Shown: positions 7,825 through 26,445 of the stretch, piece after piece | How the letters are laid out: each line of letters opens with the position of its first letter | How positions within the stretch are numbered: the first letter of the stretch is position 1 | Source: Escherichia coli | GTDB lineage: Bacteria > Pseudomonadota > Gammaproteobacteria > Enterobacterales > Enterobacteriaceae | NCBI RefSeq assembly: GCF_024700885.2 | Contig: NZ_CP117016.1 | DNA length: 64,000 bases | Reading direction: 5' to 3' (one strand) | Translations under genes and position numbers: made by a program | The notes under the pieces: model-generated | What the model was told of the DNA's origin: nothing | Seen by the model: only the letters and a program-made list of their open reading frames with translations | Databases searched by the model: none

Positions 7825-8600
7825 TTTGCCGTTTTATCGACACCCACTGCCATTTTGATTTCCCGCCGTTTAGTGGCGATGAAGAGGCCAGCCTGCAACG
7901 CGCGGCACAAGCGGGCGTAGGCAAGATCATTGTTCCGGCGACAGAGGCGGCAAATTTTGCCCGTGTGTTGGCATTAGCGGAAAATTATCAACCGCTGTAT
8001 GCCTCGTTAGGGTTGCATCCGGGGATGTTAGAAAAACATAGCGATGCATCGCTGGAGCAGTTACAGCAGGCGCTGGAAAGGCATCCGGCGAAGGTGGTGG
8101 CGGTGGGGGAGATCGGCCTGGATCTCTTTGGCGACGATCCGCAATTTGAGAGGCAGCAGTGGTTACTCGACGAACAACTGAAACTGGCGAAACGCTACGA
8201 TCTGCCGGTGATCCTGCATTCACGGCGCACGCACGACAAACTGGCGATGCATCTTAAACGCCACGATTTGCCGCGTACTGGCGTGGTTCACGGTTTTTCC
8301 GGCAGCCTGCAACAGGCTGAACGGTTTGTACAGCTGGGCTACAAAATTGGCGTAGGCGGCACTATCACCTATCCACGCGCCAGTAAAACCCGCGATGTCA
8401 TCGCAAAATTACCGCTGGCATCGTTGTTGCTGGAAACCGATGCGCCGGATATGCCGCTCAACGGCTTTCAGGGGAAGCCTAACCGCCCGGAACAGGCTGC
8501 GCGGGTGTTTGCCGTACTTTGCGAGTTACGCCCGGAACCAGAAGATGAGATTGCCGAAGTGTTGCTTAATAATACGTATGCGTTGTTTAACGTGCCGTAG
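7821..8600 (+). CDS. yjjV: TatD-family metal-dependent hydrolase YjjV
   Basis: FIDTHCHFDF TatD signature; overlaps the yjjU stop. Confidence 0.8.
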   Translation: MICRFIDTHCHFDFPPFSGDEEASLQRAAQAGVGKIIVPATEAANFARVLALAENYQPLYASLGLHPGMLEKHSDASLEQLQQALERHPAKVVAVGEIGLDLFGDDPQFERQQWLLDEQLKLAKRYDLPVILHSRRTHDKLAMHLKRHDLPRTGVVHGFSGSLQQAERFVQLGYKIGVGGTITYPRASKTRDVIAKLPLASLLLETDAPDMPLNGFQGKPNRPEQAARVFAVLCELRPEPEDEIAEVLLNNTYALFNVP

Positions 8601-8640
8601 GCAGGACAAGGCGTTTACGCCACATCCGGCATGTCACAAA
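8601..8640. repeat. REP-like palindromic element
   Basis: Reverse complement reads gccggatgtggcgtaaacgccttgtcctgcc, which is REP-consensus-like. Confidence 0.4.
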
Positions 8641-9497
8641 TACAGCGCCGGAAATATCAACCGGCTCACCCCGCGCTCCCGTAACGCATCAGCCAACTGC
8701 TCAACATCTTCCGGTGTGGCGCTCGGCCAGCTTTGCGCTTCGCCATACACGCCGTGGGCATGAAACGCGTTCAGGCGTACCGGAACATCGCCAAGTCCCT
8801 TGATAAACGCCGCCAGTTCTTCGATGTGTTGCAAATAATCCACCTGGCCAGGGATTACCAGCAAACGCAGTTCCGCCAGCTTGCCGCGCTCTGCCAGCAA
8901 ATAGATGCTGCGCTTAATCTGCTGATTATCGCGTCCGGTTAACTGTTGATGACATTCGCTACCCCACGCTTTGAGATCGAGCATCGCGCCGTCGCACACC
9001 GGGAGCAATTTTTCCCAGCCGGTTTCGCTCAACATACCGTTACTGTCCACCAGACAGGTGAGATGGCACAGTTGCGGATCATTTTTGATAGCAGTAAACA
9101 GCGCCACCACAAACGGTAGCTGGGTCGTGGCTTCGCCGCCGCTTACCGTTATCCCTTCGATAAACAGCACTGCTTTGCGGATATGGCTAAGCACCTCATC
9201 CACGCTCATGGACTGCGCCATTGGCGTGGCATGTTGCGGACACATCTTCAGGCAGGTATCACATTGCTCGCAGACCACAGCGTTCCACACCACTTTGCCG
9301 TCAACAATCTGCAACGCCTGATGCGGACACTGTGGCACGCACTCTCCACAGTCATTGCAGCGTCCCATCGTCCACGGATTGTGACAATTTTTGCAACGCA
9401 GATTGCAGCCCTGCAAAAACAGAGCCAGACGACTGCCTGGCCCGTCAACGCAGGAGAAGGGGATAATCTTACTGACTAAAGCGCATCTGCTGTTCAT
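8634..9497 (-). CDS. yjjW: Glycyl-radical enzyme activating protein YjjW
   Basis: 287-aa radical-SAM product with C-x3-C-x2-C and ferredoxin-like cysteine clusters. Confidence 0.85.
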
Positions 9498-18748: not shown

Positions 18749-18796
18749 TTGCTCGCCCGTCATCCTGCGGGCGGCACAGCATTAACGAGGTACACC

Positions 18797-20179
18797 GTGG
18801 CAAAAGCTCCAAAACGCGCCTTTGTTTGTAATGAATGCGGGGCCGATTATCCGCGCTGGCAGGGGCAGTGCAGTGCCTGTCATGCCTGGAACACCATCAC
18901 CGAGGTGCGTCTTGCTGCGTCGCCAACGGTGGCGCGTAACGAGCGTCTCAGTGGCTATGCCGGTAGCGCCGGGGTGGCAAAAGTCCAGAAACTCTCCGAT
19001 ATCAGCCTTGAAGAGCTGCCGCGTTTTTCCACCGGATTTAAAGAGTTCGACCGCGTACTAGGCGGCGGCGTGGTGCCGGGAAGCGCCATTCTGATTGGCG
19101 GTAACCCAGGTGCGGGGAAATCCACGCTGCTACTGCAAACGCTGTGCAAACTGGCCCAGCAGATGAAAACGCTGTATGTCACTGGCGAAGAGTCGCTGCA
19201 ACAGGTGGCAATGCGCGCTCATCGCCTTGGCCTGCCGACTGACAATCTCAATATGTTGTCGGAAACCAGCATCGAACAGATCTGCCTGATTGCCGAAGAA
19301 GAGCAACCGAAACTGATGGTAATTGACTCGATCCAGGTGATGCATATGGCGGATGTACAATCATCGCCTGGTAGCGTGGCGCAGGTGCGTGAAACGGCGG
19401 CTTATCTGACGCGCTTCGCCAAAACGCGCGGCGTGGCGATTGTCATGGTCGGGCACGTAACCAAAGATGGCTCGCTGGCTGGCCCTAAAGTGCTGGAACA
19501 CTGTATTGACTGTTCGGTGCTTCTGGACGGCGATGCCGACTCCCGTTTCCGCACCTTGCGTAGCCATAAAAACCGCTTCGGCGCGGTGAATGAACTGGGC
19601 GTCTTCGCGATGACCGAACAGGGTCTGCGTGAAGTCAGCAACCCTTCGGCAATCTTTTTAAGCCGCGGTGATGAAGTGACCTCCGGTAGCTCAGTGATGG
19701 TAGTGTGGGAAGGAACGCGTCCGCTGCTGGTGGAGATCCAGGCGCTGGTCGATCACTCGATGATGGCGAATCCACGCCGCGTGGCGGTAGGGCTGGAGCA
19801 AAACCGTCTGGCGATCCTGCTGGCTGTCTTGCACCGTCACGGTGGTCTGCAAATGGCCGATCAGGATGTATTTGTGAACGTGGTCGGCGGCGTGAAGGTA
19901 ACCGAAACCAGCGCCGACTTGGCGTTACTGCTGGCGATGGTTTCCAGCCTGCGTGACAGACCGCTGCCGCAGGATCTGGTGGTGTTTGGTGAAGTCGGGC
20001 TGGCAGGGGAGATCCGCCCGGTGCCCAGCGGTCAGGAACGTATCTCAGAAGCGGCGAAACACGGTTTTCGCCGGGCGATTGTTCCGGCGGCTAACGTACC
20101 GAAAAAAGCGCCGGAAGGGATGCAGATTTTTGGCGTTAAAAAACTCTCCGACGCGCTTAGCGTGTTCGACGACTTATAA
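18797..20179 (+). CDS. radA: DNA repair protein RadA (Sms)
   Basis: 460-aa product from GTG start, AKAPKRAFVCNECGADYPRWQGQCSAC zinc finger and Walker A GGNPGAGKST. Confidence 0.9.
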   Translation: MAKAPKRAFVCNECGADYPRWQGQCSACHAWNTITEVRLAASPTVARNERLSGYAGSAGVAKVQKLSDISLEELPRFSTGFKEFDRVLGGGVVPGSAILIGGNPGAGKSTLLLQTLCKLAQQMKTLYVTGEESLQQVAMRAHRLGLPTDNLNMLSETSIEQICLIAEEEQPKLMVIDSIQVMHMADVQSSPGSVAQVRETAAYLTRFAKTRGVAIVMVGHVTKDGSLAGPKVLEHCIDCSVLLDGDADSRFRTLRSHKNRFGAVNELGVFAMTEQGLREVSNPSAIFLSRGDEVTSGSSVMVVWEGTRPLLVEIQALVDHSMMANPRRVAVGLEQNRLAILLAVLHRHGGLQMADQDVFVNVVGGVKVTETSADLALLLAMVSSLRDRPLPQDLVVFGEVGLAGEIRPVPSGQERISEAAKHGFRRAIVPAANVPKKAPEGMQIFGVKKLSDALSVFDDL

Positions 20180-20199
20180 TGAGAGATACGGAGGGAGAT

Positions 20200-21432
20200 A
20201 TGTCGTCATTTGATTACCTGAAAACTGCCATCAAGCAACAAGGCTGCACGCTACAGCAGGTAGCTGATGCCAGCGGTATGACCAAAGGGTATTTAAGCCA
20301 GTTACTGAATGCCAAAATTAAAAGCCCCAGCGCGCAAAAGCTGGAGGCGTTGCACCGTTTTTTGGGGCTTGAGTTTCCCCGGCAGAAGAAAACCATTGGT
20401 GTCGTATTCGGTAAGTTCTACCCGCTGCATACCGGACATATCTACCTTATCCAGCGCGCCTGTAGCCAGGTTGACGAGCTGCATATCATTATGGGCTTTG
20501 ACGATACCCGTGACCGTGCGTTGTTTGAAGACAGCGCCATGTCGCAGCAGCCCACGGTGCCGGATCGTCTGCGCTGGTTATTGCAAACCTTTAAATATCA
20601 GAAAAATATCCGTATTCATGCCTTCAACGAAGAGGGCATGGAGCCGTATCCGCACGGCTGGGATGTGTGGAGCAACGGCATCAAAAAGTTTATGGCTGAA
20701 AAGGGGATCCAGCCGGACCTGATCTACACCTCGGAAGAAGCCGATGCGCCACAGTATATGGAACATCTGGGGATCGAGACGGTGCTGGTCGATCCGAAAC
20801 GCACCTTTATGAGTATCAGCGGTGCGCAGATCCGCGAAAACCCGTTCCGCTACTGGGAATATATTCCCACCGAAGTGAAGCCGTTCTTTGTGCGTACCGT
20901 GGCGATCCTTGGCGGCGAGTCGAGCGGTAAATCAACCCTGGTAAACAAACTTGCTAATATCTTCAACACTACCAGTGCATGGGAATATGGTCGCGATTAT
21001 GTCTTTTCACACCTTGGCGGTGATGAGATCGCATTGCAGTATTCCGACTACGATAAAATCGCGCTGGGACACGCTCAATACATTGATTTTGCAGTGAAAT
21101 ATGCCAATAAAGTGGCGTTTATCGACACTGATTTTGTCACTACCCAGGCGTTCTGCAAAAAGTACGAAGGGCGGGAGCATCCGTTCGTGCAGGCGCTGAT
21201 TGATGAATACCGTTTTGATCTGGTGATCCTGCTGGAGAACAACACCCCGTGGGTGGCGGATGGTTTACGCAGCCTCGGCAGTTCGGTGGATCGCAAAGAG
21301 TTCCAGAACTTGCTGGTGGAGATGCTGGAAGAGAACAATATCGAATTTGTGCGGGTTGAAGAGGACGATTACGACAGCCGTTTCCTGCGCTGTGTGGAGC
21401 TGGTGCGGGAGATGATGGGCGAGCAGAGATAA
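20200..21432 (+). CDS. nadR: Bifunctional NMN adenylyltransferase / ribosylnicotinamide kinase / repressor
   Basis: 410-aa product MSSFDYLKTAIKQQGCTLQQVADASGMTKGYLSQLL... Confidence 0.9.
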   Translation: MSSFDYLKTAIKQQGCTLQQVADASGMTKGYLSQLLNAKIKSPSAQKLEALHRFLGLEFPRQKKTIGVVFGKFYPLHTGHIYLIQRACSQVDELHIIMGFDDTRDRALFEDSAMSQQPTVPDRLRWLLQTFKYQKNIRIHAFNEEGMEPYPHGWDVWSNGIKKFMAEKGIQPDLIYTSEEADAPQYMEHLGIETVLVDPKRTFMSISGAQIRENPFRYWEYIPTEVKPFFVRTVAILGGESSGKSTLVNKLANIFNTTSAWEYGRDYVFSHLGGDEIALQYSDYDKIALGHAQYIDFAVKYANKVAFIDTDFVTTQAFCKKYEGREHPFVQALIDEYRFDLVILLENNTPWVADGLRSLGSSVDRKEFQNLLVEMLEENNIEFVRVEEDDYDSRFLRCVELVREMMGEQR

Positions 21433-21465
21433 CCGTGACGAAACGGCTCAAAGGCGAGGTATAAA

Positions 21466-21669
21466 ATGAGTTTTTTTGATAAGTTGAAAACCTCTCTGGA
21501 AGAGGCTGTTGAGATTAAACAAGGTTTAAAAGAACCTGCACGGGTGACCCGCTACGAAATTGCGGATGCTAAGGCTATTCGTGAGCAACTTCATACTCCA
21601 ACTGACCGGTTGCGTAGCCAGAATGCAATCAAATCTGACAGTCCGCTTCGAGCGAAAATCGGAAGTTAG
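21466..21669 (+). CDS. Hypothetical small protein (67 aa)
   Basis: ORF with plausible RBS directly downstream of nadR; no recognisable motif; first gene of the nadR-ettA accessory segment. Confidence 0.3.
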   Translation: MSFFDKLKTSLEEAVEIKQGLKEPARVTRYEIADAKAIREQLHTPTDRLRSQNAIKSDSPLRAKIGS

Positions 21670-21672
21670 TAG

Positions 21673-22221
21673 CTAGTTACCCAATAACTGCTCCCACTCT
21701 TTCTTGAGTAGAGCGAAAATAAATGTATCATCATATTTTTCTACACCATTATCATGTGTGAACGAGACAAACTCTTTAAAACATCCCTCCTGTCGCATAT
21801 GGAGACGAGCACATAGTTTCTGAGAGGCAAAATTATAGTCTTCAACATATGCATAAAGACGTCTGGCTTCTTTTTCAAAAAACAAATATTGAAATAACGC
21901 AGTGACAGATTCTGTAGCATAGCCTTTACCTTCATACCTCTTGTTAAAATGCCAGCCAACTGACCAGGTATTTCTGTCAGACTCCCCCTTATTATCAGCA
22001 AAGAGATGACCAATTAATTCATCAGTCTCTTTAAGGCAAACGGCAAACTGGCTGTTATCAAGGATTCTGCTGTCTATTTCTTTTATCGCATCTTCCAGGG
22101 AGTTGAGTTTTTCGTCCTGAAAACAAGGTGTGCGAGGTGAAGACAGATAATCGAAAAGTGCAGATGCATCTTTATTTTTGAATGCGCGAATAATGAGTCG
22201 CTCTGTAGTCATGAAGATCAT
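21673..22221 (-). CDS. GNAT-family N-acetyltransferase (RimJ/RimL-like)
   Basis: 182-aa ORF with GNAT core (WSVGWHFNKRYEGKGYATESV); true start may be the Met at 22212; AT-rich. Confidence 0.65.
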   Translation of the reverse strand: MIFMTTERLIIRAFKNKDASALFDYLSSPRTPCFQDEKLNSLEDAIKEIDSRILDNSQFAVCLKETDELIGHLFADNKGESDRNTWSVGWHFNKRYEGKGYATESVTALFQYLFFEKEARRLYAYVEDYNFASQKLCARLHMRQEGCFKEFVSFTHDNGVEKYDDTFIFALLKKEWEQLLGN

Positions 22222-22362
22222 GGAAACCTTATGTTATCTGGAGAACTTTTTGTGCATTCTACTAAATAATGATGCTTAGTCATATTAAGCTCATTCTGAT
22301 GTGATCAATGTCTACTTTTGGCACTATACGGACGACCAAACCCAATCAGATCCGACCAGCCG

Positions 22363-22584
22363 TTAGCCAGTGCCAGTTCGGCGCGCGCTTTGGTGTATTT
22401 TCCGGAGTAAATCAGCGTGCCGTGGAAAATTATGCGCAGCGCTTCTGCTGATTTGCGTACCTTCGCAGATGATAAGTCCAGCACTGGCGCGCTGCGCGTA
22501 ATAGGCCGCCATTATGTCAGTCGCAACGTCACCCGCGCGGGAACGCGTCGTCGGTGGCATTACAATACGGTTTATTAATGGCAA
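22363..22584 (-). pseudogene. Truncated remnant of an Old-Yellow-Enzyme-type NADH:flavin oxidoreductase (NemA-like) gene
   Basis: 73-aa ORF whose first ~50 residues (NRIVMPPTTRSRAG...MAAYYAQRASAGLIICEGTQIS) match the OYE N-terminus, then diverge; no downstream continuation. Confidence 0.5.
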
Positions 22585-22632
22585 CGCATTCAGCGCATAT
22601 TTAGCAAATTACGTAATGGGTCCCTCGCGCGA

Positions 22633-22845
22633 TTATTTATACAGTTCGGCACTCATGGTGACGGTATTGCCCATGCGAGCGCTGGTAATTTTGTATTCAG
22701 AGGCGTTCATCTCTTTCGCTTTCTGCGCAATAACCGCTTCAGCGGAATCCAGTGTTGTACCGGTTGCTGTCACGCTTTGCGCCGATGCGTTAAACGCCGC
22801 GACAGAGAAAAGAGAAGCCGTAAAAATTGCGATGATCGTTTTCAT
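22633..22845 (-). CDS. DUF1471 (YdgH/BhsA/McbA-family) small secreted protein
   Basis: 70-aa product MKTIIAIFTASLFSVAAFNASA (signal peptide) ...YKITSARMGNTVTMSAELYK. Confidence 0.65.
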   Translation of the reverse strand: MKTIIAIFTASLFSVAAFNASAQSVTATGTTLDSAEAVIAQKAKEMNASEYKITSARMGNTVTMSAELYK

Positions 22846-23002
22846 GTTTATATTCCAGAGTGTCTTAATTGTTTGGCGTTTATTAACGCGATGGGGAGAG
22901 AATACGCCTGCTGCCTGATAACATAAATGATACAAATGACAATAGACTATTCTGATTTTGTTAATAATCAGACGCCGGACGTTCCGACGCCTGTCGATTG
23001 CA

Positions 23003-23419
23003 TCAGGCAACAAAGTTGTCCTTCAGCGCCTTGAGACCATCCCGATAGATGCCGGTAAACAGCGCTTCGGCCTCTTCGTTCGTCACATTCACCGGGGTGA
23101 ATTCACCGAACCATTCCACACGGGAAACCTGGCTGTCGGCGGTTTCATGAACGGTAATGGTGGAGAGGTAATCCACCACCGGGAACGGTGCCTGAATAAT
23201 GGAATAGGTATAACTGCGTTGACGGTTATCAAACGCTTCCAGACGTTCAACCACAGTGCCGCCGTCAGAGGTTGTCAGCGAACGAACGCGACCGCCTTCT
23301 GTCACTACGCTTTTCGGGATGAACGGCAGCCAGTCTGGCAGCGCATCAAAGCCGCCCATCAATTGCCATACGGCGTCGGTAGAAGCCGGAATTTCGATCG
23401 ATACAGTTGTTTTAGCCAT
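23003..23419 (-). CDS. SRPBCC-superfamily (polyketide-cyclase/START-like) protein
   Basis: 138-aa ORF MAKTTVSIEIPASTDAVWQLMGGFDALPDWLP..., family pattern of small ligand-binding SRPBCC proteins. Confidence 0.55.
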   Translation of the reverse strand: MAKTTVSIEIPASTDAVWQLMGGFDALPDWLPFIPKSVVTEGGRVRSLTTSDGGTVVERLEAFDNRQRSYTYSIIQAPFPVVDYLSTITVHETADSQVSRVEWFGEFTPVNVTNEEAEALFTGIYRDGLKALKDNFVA

Positions 23420-23444
23420 GATAATTTTCTCTTAATTTATAGGG

Positions 23445-24242
23445 TTACATAGTCAGGGTGTCGACGACACCGCCATCGACGCGCAGGGCTGCCCCTGTGG
23501 TTGCCGAGGAAAGCGGTGACGCGAGATAAACCGCCAGATTCGCTACTTCTTCCACATCCGCCGCACGCTGGATGATGGAGCTCGGACGCGAGGTTTTAAC
23601 AAACTCATCGGCCTGTTCACGCGCACTGCGTCCCGATTGTGCAGCGGCATCCGCCAGCATCTCTTTCAGGCCATCGGTAAAGGTTGGCCCTGGCAGAATG
23701 GCGTTGACGGTCACACCGGTCCCCGCCAGTCGTTTCGCCAGACCATGAGAAACCGCCAGATTCGCGGCTTTGGTGACGCCGTAGTTGATCATGTCGCCAG
23801 GGATTGCCACGCCGGATTCGGACGAGACAAAAATAATCCGCCCCCAGCCCTGTTCCGTCATGCCTGGCGCATAGTGACGCGCCAGACGAACGCCGGAGAG
23901 GACGTTGACGTTATAGAAGTGCATCCACTCATCATCCGGAACGCTAAAGAAATCTTTATCGTTAAAAATGCCCAGATTATTGACCAGCACATCAGCCGTT
24001 GGGACTGCAGCGATCAGCGCAGCCACGCCGTCTTCGGTGCTGAGATCCGCCACCACGCCGCGCAGTGACGCTGTGGGGGTTTGTGCCGCAATCGCAGCCA
24101 TGGCGTCATCAACGCCGCTCTGTTTACGGCCGACGACAACCACCGTTGCGCCTGCTTTTGCCAGTCCGGCGGCGATACCCTGCCCAATGCCGGAGGTTGA
24201 GCCGCTGACCACCGCGACTTTACCTGTCAGATCCAGTTTCAT
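23445..24242 (-). CDS. Short-chain dehydrogenase/reductase (SDR)
   Basis: Start MKLDLTGKVAVVSGSTSGIGQGIA (TGxxxGxG Rossmann motif); ORF-track start is further upstream. Confidence 0.8.
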   Translation of the reverse strand: MKLDLTGKVAVVSGSTSGIGQGIAAGLAKAGATVVVVGRKQSGVDDAMAAIAAQTPTASLRGVVADLSTEDGVAALIAAVPTADVLVNNLGIFNDKDFFSVPDDEWMHFYNVNVLSGVRLARHYAPGMTEQGWGRIIFVSSESGVAIPGDMINYGVTKAANLAVSHGLAKRLAGTGVTVNAILPGPTFTDGLKEMLADAAAQSGRSAREQADEFVKTSRPSSIIQRAADVEEVANLAVYLASPLSSATTGAALRVDGGVVDTLTM

Positions 24243-24261
24243 CGTTTTCTCACCAGGTTGA

Positions 24262-25272
24262 TTAACGGGTCGGCAGCGGAGCGTTTTCCGCAACCAGATT
24301 TTGACGGCGCATTTCTGCCCAGAATTCAGCCGGAACAGGCGCATTCAGTGCAGCCAGATCTTCTGCCATACGGCCAGGACGGCTGGAGCCAGGAATAACC
24401 GCTGCAACGGCCGGGTTTGCCAGCGCGAACTGCAGCGCAGCCGCTTTAACGTTCACATTGAAACGTGTGGCAATGGCGTTAATTTGCGCCACTTTCTGCT
24501 GGATGGCCGCAGAAGCTTTCTGATATTCAAAGTGCTCGCCGCCTGCCAGTACGCCAGAGCTGTACGGACCGCCCACAACAATATCCACGTTCTGTTCCAG
24601 TGCTTCTGGCATCAGGCGTTGCAGCGCACGTTCGTGATCCAGCAGGGAATAACGCCCCGCCAGCAGGAACGCATCTGGCTTCGGTTCGTCCAGCGCCAGC
24701 GTCAGTTCACAAGGTTCGACGCGGTTCACACCCAGTCCCCAGGCTTTAATCACACCTTCGTCACGCAAACGTGTCAGTGCACGAAACGCACCGGTACGGG
24801 CTATGTTGAACTGTTCCAGCCAGCTGTCACCGTAGAAGTCCTGTGCCGGGTCGTGGATCCAGACAATATCCAGACGGTCTGTTTTCAGGCGTTTCAGGCT
24901 GTCTTCAATCGAGCGCAGCGTGGCGTCAGCAGAGTAGTCATTCAGAATTTTGTTTTTCAGGCCGTATTCGAACAGGCCACCTTTTTCACCGAAATCACGT
25001 TTTGCCGGATCTTCCATTTCGTCCAGCATGATGCGACCGACTTTGCTGCTCAGAACGTATTCATCACGTGGATACTGAGACAGCGCTTCGCCTATGCGGA
25101 TTTCAGAAAGGCCAGAGCCGTACAGCGGCGCGGTATCAAAGTAACGCACGCCCAGGTTCCAGGCTTCGCTCACGGTGGCGTGGGCCTCGTCTTCCAGAAT
25201 GGCACGGAACATGTTGCCGAGTGGTGCGCCGCCTAAGCCAATTTTGCCGGGAAGTAAATTTTTGATGCTCAT
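24262..25272 (-). CDS. Aldo-keto reductase
   Basis: 336-aa ORF with AKR signatures (IGLGGAPLG, RYFDTAPLYG, IVWIHDP). Confidence 0.8.
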   Translation of the reverse strand: MSIKNLLPGKIGLGGAPLGNMFRAILEDEAHATVSEAWNLGVRYFDTAPLYGSGLSEIRIGEALSQYPRDEYVLSSKVGRIMLDEMEDPAKRDFGEKGGLFEYGLKNKILNDYSADATLRSIEDSLKRLKTDRLDIVWIHDPAQDFYGDSWLEQFNIARTGAFRALTRLRDEGVIKAWGLGVNRVEPCELTLALDEPKPDAFLLAGRYSLLDHERALQRLMPEALEQNVDIVVGGPYSSGVLAGGEHFEYQKASAAIQQKVAQINAIATRFNVNVKAAALQFALANPAVAAVIPGSSRPGRMAEDLAALNAPVPAEFWAEMRRQNLVAENAPLPTR

Positions 25273-25405
25273 AAGATGTCCTCAATTATTCGGTTTGGGT
25301 TAGGGCATTTTTTTGCTATCGCCCTGTGACGTGGATCACAATACCTTGCGAGGTTGTGACTTGATAGGACATAATTCGTCTGACTTAAGTCCTTTGAGGT
25401 CTAAC

Positions 25406-26293
25406 ATGATTGATTTACGCCAACTGAAGTACTTCGTGGTGGTCGCAGAAGAAGAGCACGTGGGACGCGCAGCCGAGCGATTACATATCTCGCAATCACC
25501 GCTGAGCCGCCAGATTGCACAACTGGAAGAACGGCTGGGGCTGACGCTGTTTGAGCGTAATCAGCAGCGCATTCGCCTGACCGCTGATGGACAGACATTC
25601 CTTGCCGAAACACGTTCGTTGCTGACACACGCCAACCGCCTGGAGTCGTTAGGCAAACGCCTGGGACGGGGGGAAGATGGTGGCTTGTGTATTGGCTATA
25701 TCGAAAACGCCATGCATTCCGGTGTGCTTTCTACGGCGCTACGTACGTTACGTGTATCGCGTCCGAATGTGCATATTGCACTTTACAGCCAACCACCGGC
25801 GACCCAGATTGAAGGCCTGCGCCAGCGCAGTCTCGATTTTTCTCTGGTCGATACGCCGCCCACCGACAGCGAGCAGGATCTGGAATATATTCAGGTTCTG
25901 GATGATCGAATGTTGTTGGCCTTACCGCAAAATCATCCTCTGGCGCAGGAGGAAAACCTTGTCGCGTCACAACTTGGCGATGAGCAGTGGATTGCGGTGA
26001 TTCATAACGACGATGCGCATTCTCGCGATCATTTTGTCGCCGCCTGTGTTAACGCCGGGTTTAATCCTGATATTCGCCTGGAAGCGGGTGAACCCCTCAC
26101 GGCATTAGGTCTGGTCGCTGCGGGATTAGGTCTGGCCTTAATTCAACATAGTCTGCGTCATAATGCGCCGGAAGGGGTGGTATTACGTGAATTGCCGTGG
26201 ATGAATTATTCAACGCAATTATGGGCAGCCTGGCATAAAGCCAACCAACGTCCGCTGGTTTCCCATTTCCGCCAGATTTTGCGCGGTGAATAA
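25406..26293 (+). CDS. LysR-family transcriptional regulator
   Basis: Start MIDLRQLKYFVVVAEEEHVGRAAERLHISQSPLSRQIAQLEERLG (LysR HTH); divergent from the aldo-keto reductase gene. Confidence 0.85.
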   Translation: MIDLRQLKYFVVVAEEEHVGRAAERLHISQSPLSRQIAQLEERLGLTLFERNQQRIRLTADGQTFLAETRSLLTHANRLESLGKRLGRGEDGGLCIGYIENAMHSGVLSTALRTLRVSRPNVHIALYSQPPATQIEGLRQRSLDFSLVDTPPTDSEQDLEYIQVLDDRMLLALPQNHPLAQEENLVASQLGDEQWIAVIHNDDAHSRDHFVAACVNAGFNPDIRLEAGEPLTALGLVAAGLGLALIQHSLRHNAPEGVVLRELPWMNYSTQLWAAWHKANQRPLVSHFRQILRGE

Positions 26294-26399
26294 AACGTTA
26301 AGCGGGAACCATGAGTTCCCGCTTGATTTGAGATGTCAGTCCGCATCTGAGCTAATACGCTTAAAGAAAATTCTGCCTTTTCCGGGGACTCATCATTTA

Positions 26400-26445
26400 A
26401 CTAATACCGGCTGCGATGCTGGCGCGCCGCATCCGGCATTTTACG
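26400..26445. repeat. REP-like element
   Basis: gcgcgccgcatccggcat motif downstream of the ettA 3-prime end. Confidence 0.35.

Follow-up and report, generated by a model that had tools for sequence, protein, structure and literature searches.

Remnant of an Old Yellow Enzyme alkene reductase gene at the end of a LysR-regulated operon between nadR and ettA in Escherichia coli

The minus-strand segment 22318-22614 of the window, that is, the whole stretch of 64,000 nucleotides of Escherichia coli chromosome analyzed here, is almost certainly a dead pseudogene remnant of a class-I Old Yellow Enzyme (OYE) alkene reductase that is closest to SYE1 of Shewanella oneidensis and once stood last in a LysR-controlled AKR-SDR-SRPBCC-DUF1471-OYE operon. 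The island that carries the remnant is best viewed as an operon for LysR-regulated carbonyl/alkene reduction; its last enzyme has been lost in all 482 carriers that were detected among 5,426 complete E. coli genomes. The remnant itself is ordinary and long-dead, and its pseudogene status is already known from RefSeq; as a case of routine gene decay in an accessory island, it carries slight biological weight.

The gene order in the window is radA (18749-20179), nadR (20179-21432), a truncated nadS (21466-21594), a block of genes that is absent from K-12, and ettA. The features considered here are listed below; coordinates given as L028 refer to the locus of the intact OYE ortholog in strain E69 that is described further on.

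21466-21594, plus strand: nadS, truncated to positions 1-44 of the 94-position NadS profile, on the island edge that faces nadR
21580-26422, no strand: accessory island relative to K-12 MG1655, in which nadS and ettA are separated by 135 bp of REP-like sequence instead
21668-22314, minus strand: variable cassette replacing the 3' end of the OYE gene, here consisting of the GNAT gene and its upstream 93 bp
21673-22221, minus strand: GNAT acetyltransferase gene, 3' of the OYE remnant
22305-22484, minus strand: mechanical 59-aa ORF spanning the 3' fragment, a 'hypothetical protein' in RefSeq (WP_001407311.1)
22318-22446, minus strand: 3' fragment of the OYE pseudogene, from the last base of codon 287 to codon ~329 (...EALRIIFHGTLIYSGKYTKARAE..GFGRP), 92.2% identical to L028:8861-8989
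22363-22584, minus strand: mechanical 73-aa ORF of the original prediction, with a TTG start, running through the 5' fragment and then through out-of-frame 3'-fragment sequence; not a gene
22446/22447, minus strand: deletion junction, with 686 bp missing (L028 8175-8860)
22447-22614, minus strand: 5' fragment of the OYE pseudogene, ancestral codons 1-58, from a base-by-base alignment to L028:8001-8174
22633-22845, minus strand: intact DUF1471 (YdgH/BhsA/McbA) gene, directly upstream of the OYE remnant
23003-23419, minus strand: intact SRPBCC gene of the operon
23445-24242, minus strand: intact SDR gene of the operon
24262-25272, minus strand: intact AKR (aldo/keto reductase) gene of the operon
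25406-26293, plus strand: divergently transcribed LysR-family regulator of the island

A literature search for a described island between nadR and ettA/yjjK found nothing relevant, and nadS came up solely among newly detected small genes (PMC12350097). In the window, nadS follows the NadS profile over positions 1-44 of 94 and then passes into unrelated sequence; the K-12 nadS (L093 2082-2250) diverges from the family past ~38 residues, continuing into the REP-like sequence. With nadS truncated in the window and the K-12 copy diverging as well, the 3' end of this gene seems to be a recurrent breakpoint.

The 73-aa ORF (22363-22584, minus strand, TTG start) carries the peptide quoted in the original prediction, according to which this ORF matches the N-terminal ~50 residues of OYE-family enzymes. 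The match holds: residues 2-54 of the ORF align with positions 12-68 of the 342 positions of PF00724 (Oxidored_FMN) with E=1.9e-7 and 31.1 bits, above the Pfam gathering cutoff of 27 bits, so that the 5' fragment belongs to this family by sequence. Residues 3-49 match residues 16-65 of SYE1 (E=3.6e-14), the best of many solved OYEs, and positions 17-66 of the NCBIfam NemA-subfamily model (E=3.7e-13). The accompanying claim that the enzyme has no continuation proved wrong. A second OYE piece is found at 22318-22446 on the same strand in another frame, where OYE residues ~288-329 (AEALRIIFHGTLIYSGKYTKARAE..GFGRP) follow directly after ...EGTQIS of the first piece. The second piece matches SYE1 residues 286-327 (E=4.6e-8) and PF00724 positions 282-325, the latter with 15.1 bits, which is by itself under the cutoff of 27. 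Both fragments also align with NemA (residues 7-66 and 288-329), and they score 49.5 and 23 bits with the NCBIfam model NF007899. Given the former start at 22614 and a 3' piece that extends to 22318, the true extent of the remnant is 22318-22614 rather than 22363-22584.

A protein search with the concatenated fragments yielded no full-length ortholog, just proteins that were short or fragmentary; two leads from this search (P0004 and P0026) are encoded on contigs where a DUF1471 gene is followed by an OYE gene, which is damaged in both cases. Intact orthologs were found with a repaired full-length sequence as the query in a scan of one genome per species, which yielded 80 loci. In the close orthologs, the window sequence from 22447 to 226xx aligns up to codon 58, and 22318-22446 resumes ~686 nt further on. 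Of these loci, L028 (from GenBank CP089930.1, which was deposited under the name E. coli strain E69) comes closest, with 97.7% nucleotide identity over window positions 22447-26324; its OYE gene (L028:8001-9098) is an uninterrupted reading frame of 365 codons that shows ~92% nucleotide identity to both remnant fragments, and the LysR/AKR/SDR/SRPBCC/DUF1471 operon has the same gene order. Yokenella regensburgei (L015) also possesses the whole operon with an intact OYE gene, at 81.6% nucleotide identity, and the DUF1471-OYE pair, which occurs in at least five other genera, is additionally present in Citrobacter (C. amalonaticus), Kluyvera, Pseudocitrobacter and Trabulsiella. The comparison with an intact gene that had been proposed as a check on the original prediction can be made with E69 and Yokenella, both of which carry an intact 365-aa OYE in the same operon.

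The E69 gene differs from the window copy not only in being full-length but also in location: the E69 island lies beside yhiN/pitA, whereas that of the window lies between nadR and ettA. The core flank of the E69 locus reaches only ~94% identity with all E. coli genomes, and because of this E69 looks like a divergent Escherichia lineage. The higher identity of the island itself (97.7% versus ~94% for the core flank; L028 4291-9098) suggests that it moved between Escherichia lineages.

Damaged relatives of the same gene were also encountered. An ortholog at L004 8001-9106 (GCA_021416145.1) contains a single frameshift that might reflect an error of sequencing, even though several contigs show the same product, and another one at L006 8001-8934 (GCA_027681865.1) has an internal deletion of ~166 bp and a frameshift. 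Such independent damage hints that the OYE gene might have been lost repeatedly.

The ancestral enzyme can be identified from the intact ortholog. Its closest solved relative is SYE1 of Shewanella oneidensis (PDB 2GOU, 4AWS; E=2.8e-138), which ranks first among the solved enzymes for both fragments as well and has the same HxxN...Y type of active-site motif (ELH-AN-GYL). In contrast to SYE1, an intact enzyme of 365 aa, the window retains only the equivalents of residues ~5-65 and ~286-327, without the catalytic residues. NemA of K-12 (b1650, N-ethylmaleimide reductase) belongs to the same Pfam family and overall fold class as the ancestral enzyme and is 48% identical to the intact ortholog, which scores 396.4 bits with the NemA-subfamily model NF007899, below the curated cutoff of 403; the 'NemA-like' label of the original prediction is therefore valid at the family level and not at that of the NemA subfamily. 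Furthermore, the intact ortholog has Asn where NemA has the second His, and the nemA gene lies at another locus, together with nemR and gloA. The low identity, the sub-cutoff score, the replacement of His by Asn and the different locus indicate that the remnant derives from a separate OYE lineage and is not a copy of nemA.

The lesions of the pseudogene were read from a base-by-base alignment of the remnant to the intact E69 gene (L028:8001-9098). The start codon is changed from ATG to ACG (22614-22612), codon 2 from TTA to an in-frame TAA (22611-22609), 6 bp are deleted from the 5' fragment between 22537 and 22536, and five further substitutions in this fragment alter amino acids (K14I, M22T, M36I, D39A and S52C). 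The largest lesion is a blunt internal deletion of 686 bp that shifts the frame and corresponds to E69 positions 8175-8860, that is, codons 59-286 plus 2 nt, so that codon 58 is joined to the last base of codon 287. The position of this junction is identical in nucleotide comparisons with >30 orthologs, and a search for microhomology at the junction found none. Most of the TIM barrel has disappeared with the deletion, including His183, Asn186 and Tyr188 of the ELHGANGYL motif, which we take to be catalytic, following the established OYE literature; these residues align with H182, H185 and Y187 of NemA and with the equivalent motif of SYE1. At the other end, homology to the intact gene stops at ~22318 (codon ~329), which means that the last ~36 codons are gone, and unrelated DNA is found in their place. 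Four of these changes disable the gene: the lost start, the stop at codon 2, the 686-bp deletion and the missing 3' end. The surviving OYE DNA amounts to 297 of the 1,098 nt of the gene, in two frames. The window thus lacks what a functional OYE has, a start codon followed within a single frame by a complete (beta/alpha)8 barrel (~340 profile positions), and the catalytic His-x-x-His/Asn and proton-donor Tyr fall within the deleted codons 59-286.

These lesions bear out the prediction that a full reductase gene was once present and was destroyed by deletion, given the intact 365-aa ortholog in the same operon and the 686 bp and ~36 terminal codons that the remnant lacks. The manner of truncation turned out to be more complex than a simple cut after ~50 residues: the internal deletion is out of frame and leaves a 3' piece, the start codon is lost, codon 2 is a stop and the 3' end is replaced. 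Alignment to OYE sequences, the means by which the breakpoint was to be located, places it at 22447/22446, with a second break at ~22318.

The distribution of the remnant was surveyed in 5,426 complete E. coli genomes, in 482 of which it is present, in each case as a single chromosomal copy. The 686-bp deletion is common to all 482 carriers, and the matches in all carrier rows that were sampled cross its junction in one piece. When the whole E69 gene was used as the query, none of the 5,426 genomes matched beyond the two fragments; the deleted middle, taken from another ortholog, is absent from all carriers and retrieved only three genomes, with unrelated alkene reductases (~70% identity) at other loci. 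Among nine aligned E. coli sequences that represent all four locus types, the ACG start, the TAA at codon 2 and the deletion junction are present in all nine, and the 3' break is shared by the five of five that retain that end; the nine sequences differ in the 6-bp deletion and in many point changes. Because the disabling lesions are common to all aligned carriers, the gene probably died once, before the island haplotypes diverged.

Subsequent losses are seen as well. In 441 of the 482 carriers, a further deletion of 726 bp (window 21651-22376, with 4-bp microhomology) fuses the nadS remnant to the middle of the OYE 3' fragment, and the remaining 41 carriers keep the full 3' fragment together with one of three unrelated cassettes. 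The ongoing erosion that was originally proposed is supported by the 726-bp loss; the inactivating lesions themselves are old, being common to every carrier examined, and not recent. The four allelic states of the gap between nadS and OYE (short, GNAT, TauE+wHTH and DUF2846) could be used as a lineage marker. We also observe a 77-aa protein from E. coli (P0001), whose ORF reads through both the 5' and the 3' fragment owing to an extra frameshift, a further sign of ongoing indel accumulation.

Comparison with E69 reveals different constraints on the remnant and its neighbors. The five intact island genes show 67 substitutions in 3,327 nt, with 9 amino-acid changes in 1,109 codons; in particular, the AKR, SDR and SRPBCC genes are 97.7-98.7% identical at the nucleotide level and encode only 6 amino-acid differences in 742 codons. 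The remnant has 17 substitutions in 291 aligned nt and an indel, so that its divergence is about three times that of the neighbors (5.8% versus 2.0%; Fisher p=2.8e-4), and 7 of the 8 substitutions in the 5' fragment, with the two lesion changes counted, alter an amino acid or create a stop. Judging by these counts, the pattern is that expected of neutral decay next to genes under selection. An intact ortholog in a conserved gene context elsewhere, disabling lesions and relaxed constraint compared with the neighbors are all as they should be in a unitary pseudogene or gene remnant. The most plausible course of events is that the OYE gene was inactivated a single time, before the island haplotypes of E. 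coli diversified, and that the remaining DNA has since been drifting neutrally and has been whittled further, while the rest of the operon would have been held under purifying selection. Given that E. coli retains NemA, which might serve as the housekeeping OYE, the loss perhaps was tolerated.

The degraded gene might have acquired a new role, at the level of either protein or DNA, and both options were weighed against the dead-remnant reading. It is extremely unlikely that the old reductase gene has given rise to true small-protein genes in the form of the 73-aa ORF (22363-22584) and the 59-aa ORF (22305-22484). Both ORFs are open, similar short ORFs have been deposited from many E. coli genomes and RefSeq lists the 59-aa ORF as the protein WP_001407311.1, such that a CDS covering the 3' fragment is on record as a counterpoint to the dead-remnant reading, but the ORFs themselves are not conserved, with length and C-terminus varying by strain (61, 63, 66, 73 and 77 aa), and 441 of the 482 carriers have lost part of the 59-aa ORF to the 726-bp deletion. 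The mainly non-synonymous substitutions, ~3 times denser than in the neighboring genes, and the polymorphic indels also argue against selection for a protein, the 73-aa ORF starts at an internal TTG without an obvious Shine-Dalgarno sequence, and an FMN-binding barrel is impossible from either fragment. Retention of the remnant as non-coding DNA, either as a 3' UTR or as a leader for read-through into the cassette gene that follows (GNAT here) or as the promoter of that gene, is highly improbable given that 441 carriers keep the remnant without a downstream cassette gene and that the remnant evolves faster than its neighbors. Read-through transcription from the DUF1471 gene into the remnant is possible, to judge from sequence features: the genes from DUF1471 to GNAT are on the same strand, and a search between 21400 and 23100 found no terminator-like site, including the stretches from the DUF1471 gene to the remnant or to GNAT. 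Between the remnant and GNAT, immediately downstream of the former, there is a promoter-like site (22283-22256, minus strand), but such sites are at background here, with 4 found versus 3.0 expected in shuffled sequence, and an Rfam scan of 21000-23500 found nothing credible.

The probability that errors of assembly or sequencing produced the apparent internal deletion, or that the OYE similarity is due to chance, is practically nil. Only the short length of the fragments speaks for such an explanation; in all sampled rows from the 482 complete genomes, which were assembled independently, the matches run across the same junction in one piece, the E-values reach 3.6e-14, and the nucleotide identity to the intact ortholog is 92% on either side of the junction. 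The existing annotation independently points to an incomplete gene as well. RefSeq (PGAP) pseudogenes described as 'alkene reductase; incomplete; missing C-terminus' are present in E. coli GmM066 (AC4PDJ_RS19395) and in strain 23CRST050 (AC6IZJ_RS16860), and the GmM066 DNA is 100% identical to the window over 22200-22700, so that RefSeq reaches the same conclusion of a partial OYE gene. The RefSeq pseudogene feature covers just 117 nt of the 5' fragment (window 22444-22560), whereas the 3' fragment appears as a separate 'hypothetical protein' or 'oxidoreductase' CDS, and the internal deletion, the start loss and the codon-2 stop are not recorded. In other strains, the position equivalent to the 59-aa ORF is occupied by a shorter CDS, WP_025210167.1, that is named 'oxidoreductase'. 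Most likely, WP_001407311.1 and WP_025210167.1 are spurious CDS calls that consist of the out-of-frame junction and the 3' fragment of the same pseudogene.

The slot between the nadS and OYE remnants (window boundaries 21667 and ~22315) is filled by three unrelated cassettes in different E. coli lineages, namely GNAT (19 of the 5,426 genomes, the window included), TauE/SafE with a winged-helix regulator gene (wHTH; 21 genomes) and DUF2846 (1 genome). We considered whether these cassettes are mobile or multi-copy elements; the GNAT and TauE+wHTH cassettes occur once per genome and at the nadS-OYE slot only (19 and 21 genomes, respectively) and are thus not mobile within E. coli. In other genera, the neighborhoods of the intact OYE orthologs contain neither cassette genes nor nadS. 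An imperfect inverted repeat of 31-34 nt with ~76% complementarity and a perfect 11-nt core, AAGCGGAAGTT, flanks the cassette in the TauE and DUF2846 strains (L003 2472-2505 and 3986-4019; L087 3286-3316 and 4229-4259). The right arm of the repeat abuts the OYE 3' break point, and the left arm is itself a hairpin with an 8-bp stem; the window copy is degenerate. One could envisage, although we regard this as unlikely, that the repeat is an undescribed site-specific cassette-exchange site and that it caused the OYE truncation, in place of a random deletion followed by homologous replacement. As a dispersed repeat, the 11-nt core can be dismissed, with just one copy, containing one mismatch, in the 64-kb window, no more than expected by chance. 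The sequence pattern at the cassette boundaries is GAGAAGCGGAAGTT...AACTTCCGCTTTT.

In E69, a single copy of the core AAGCGGAAGTT is located 455 bp downstream of the intact OYE gene. Also downstream of this gene, L028 9200-9395 (plus strand) retains the C-terminal part of what was a LysR-type regulator (PF03466, E=3.8e-6), and an open stretch of 83 codons without a Pfam match (L028 9333-9581, minus strand) lies next to the copy of the repeat core, so that the region past the OYE gene is a patchwork of remnants in E69 too.
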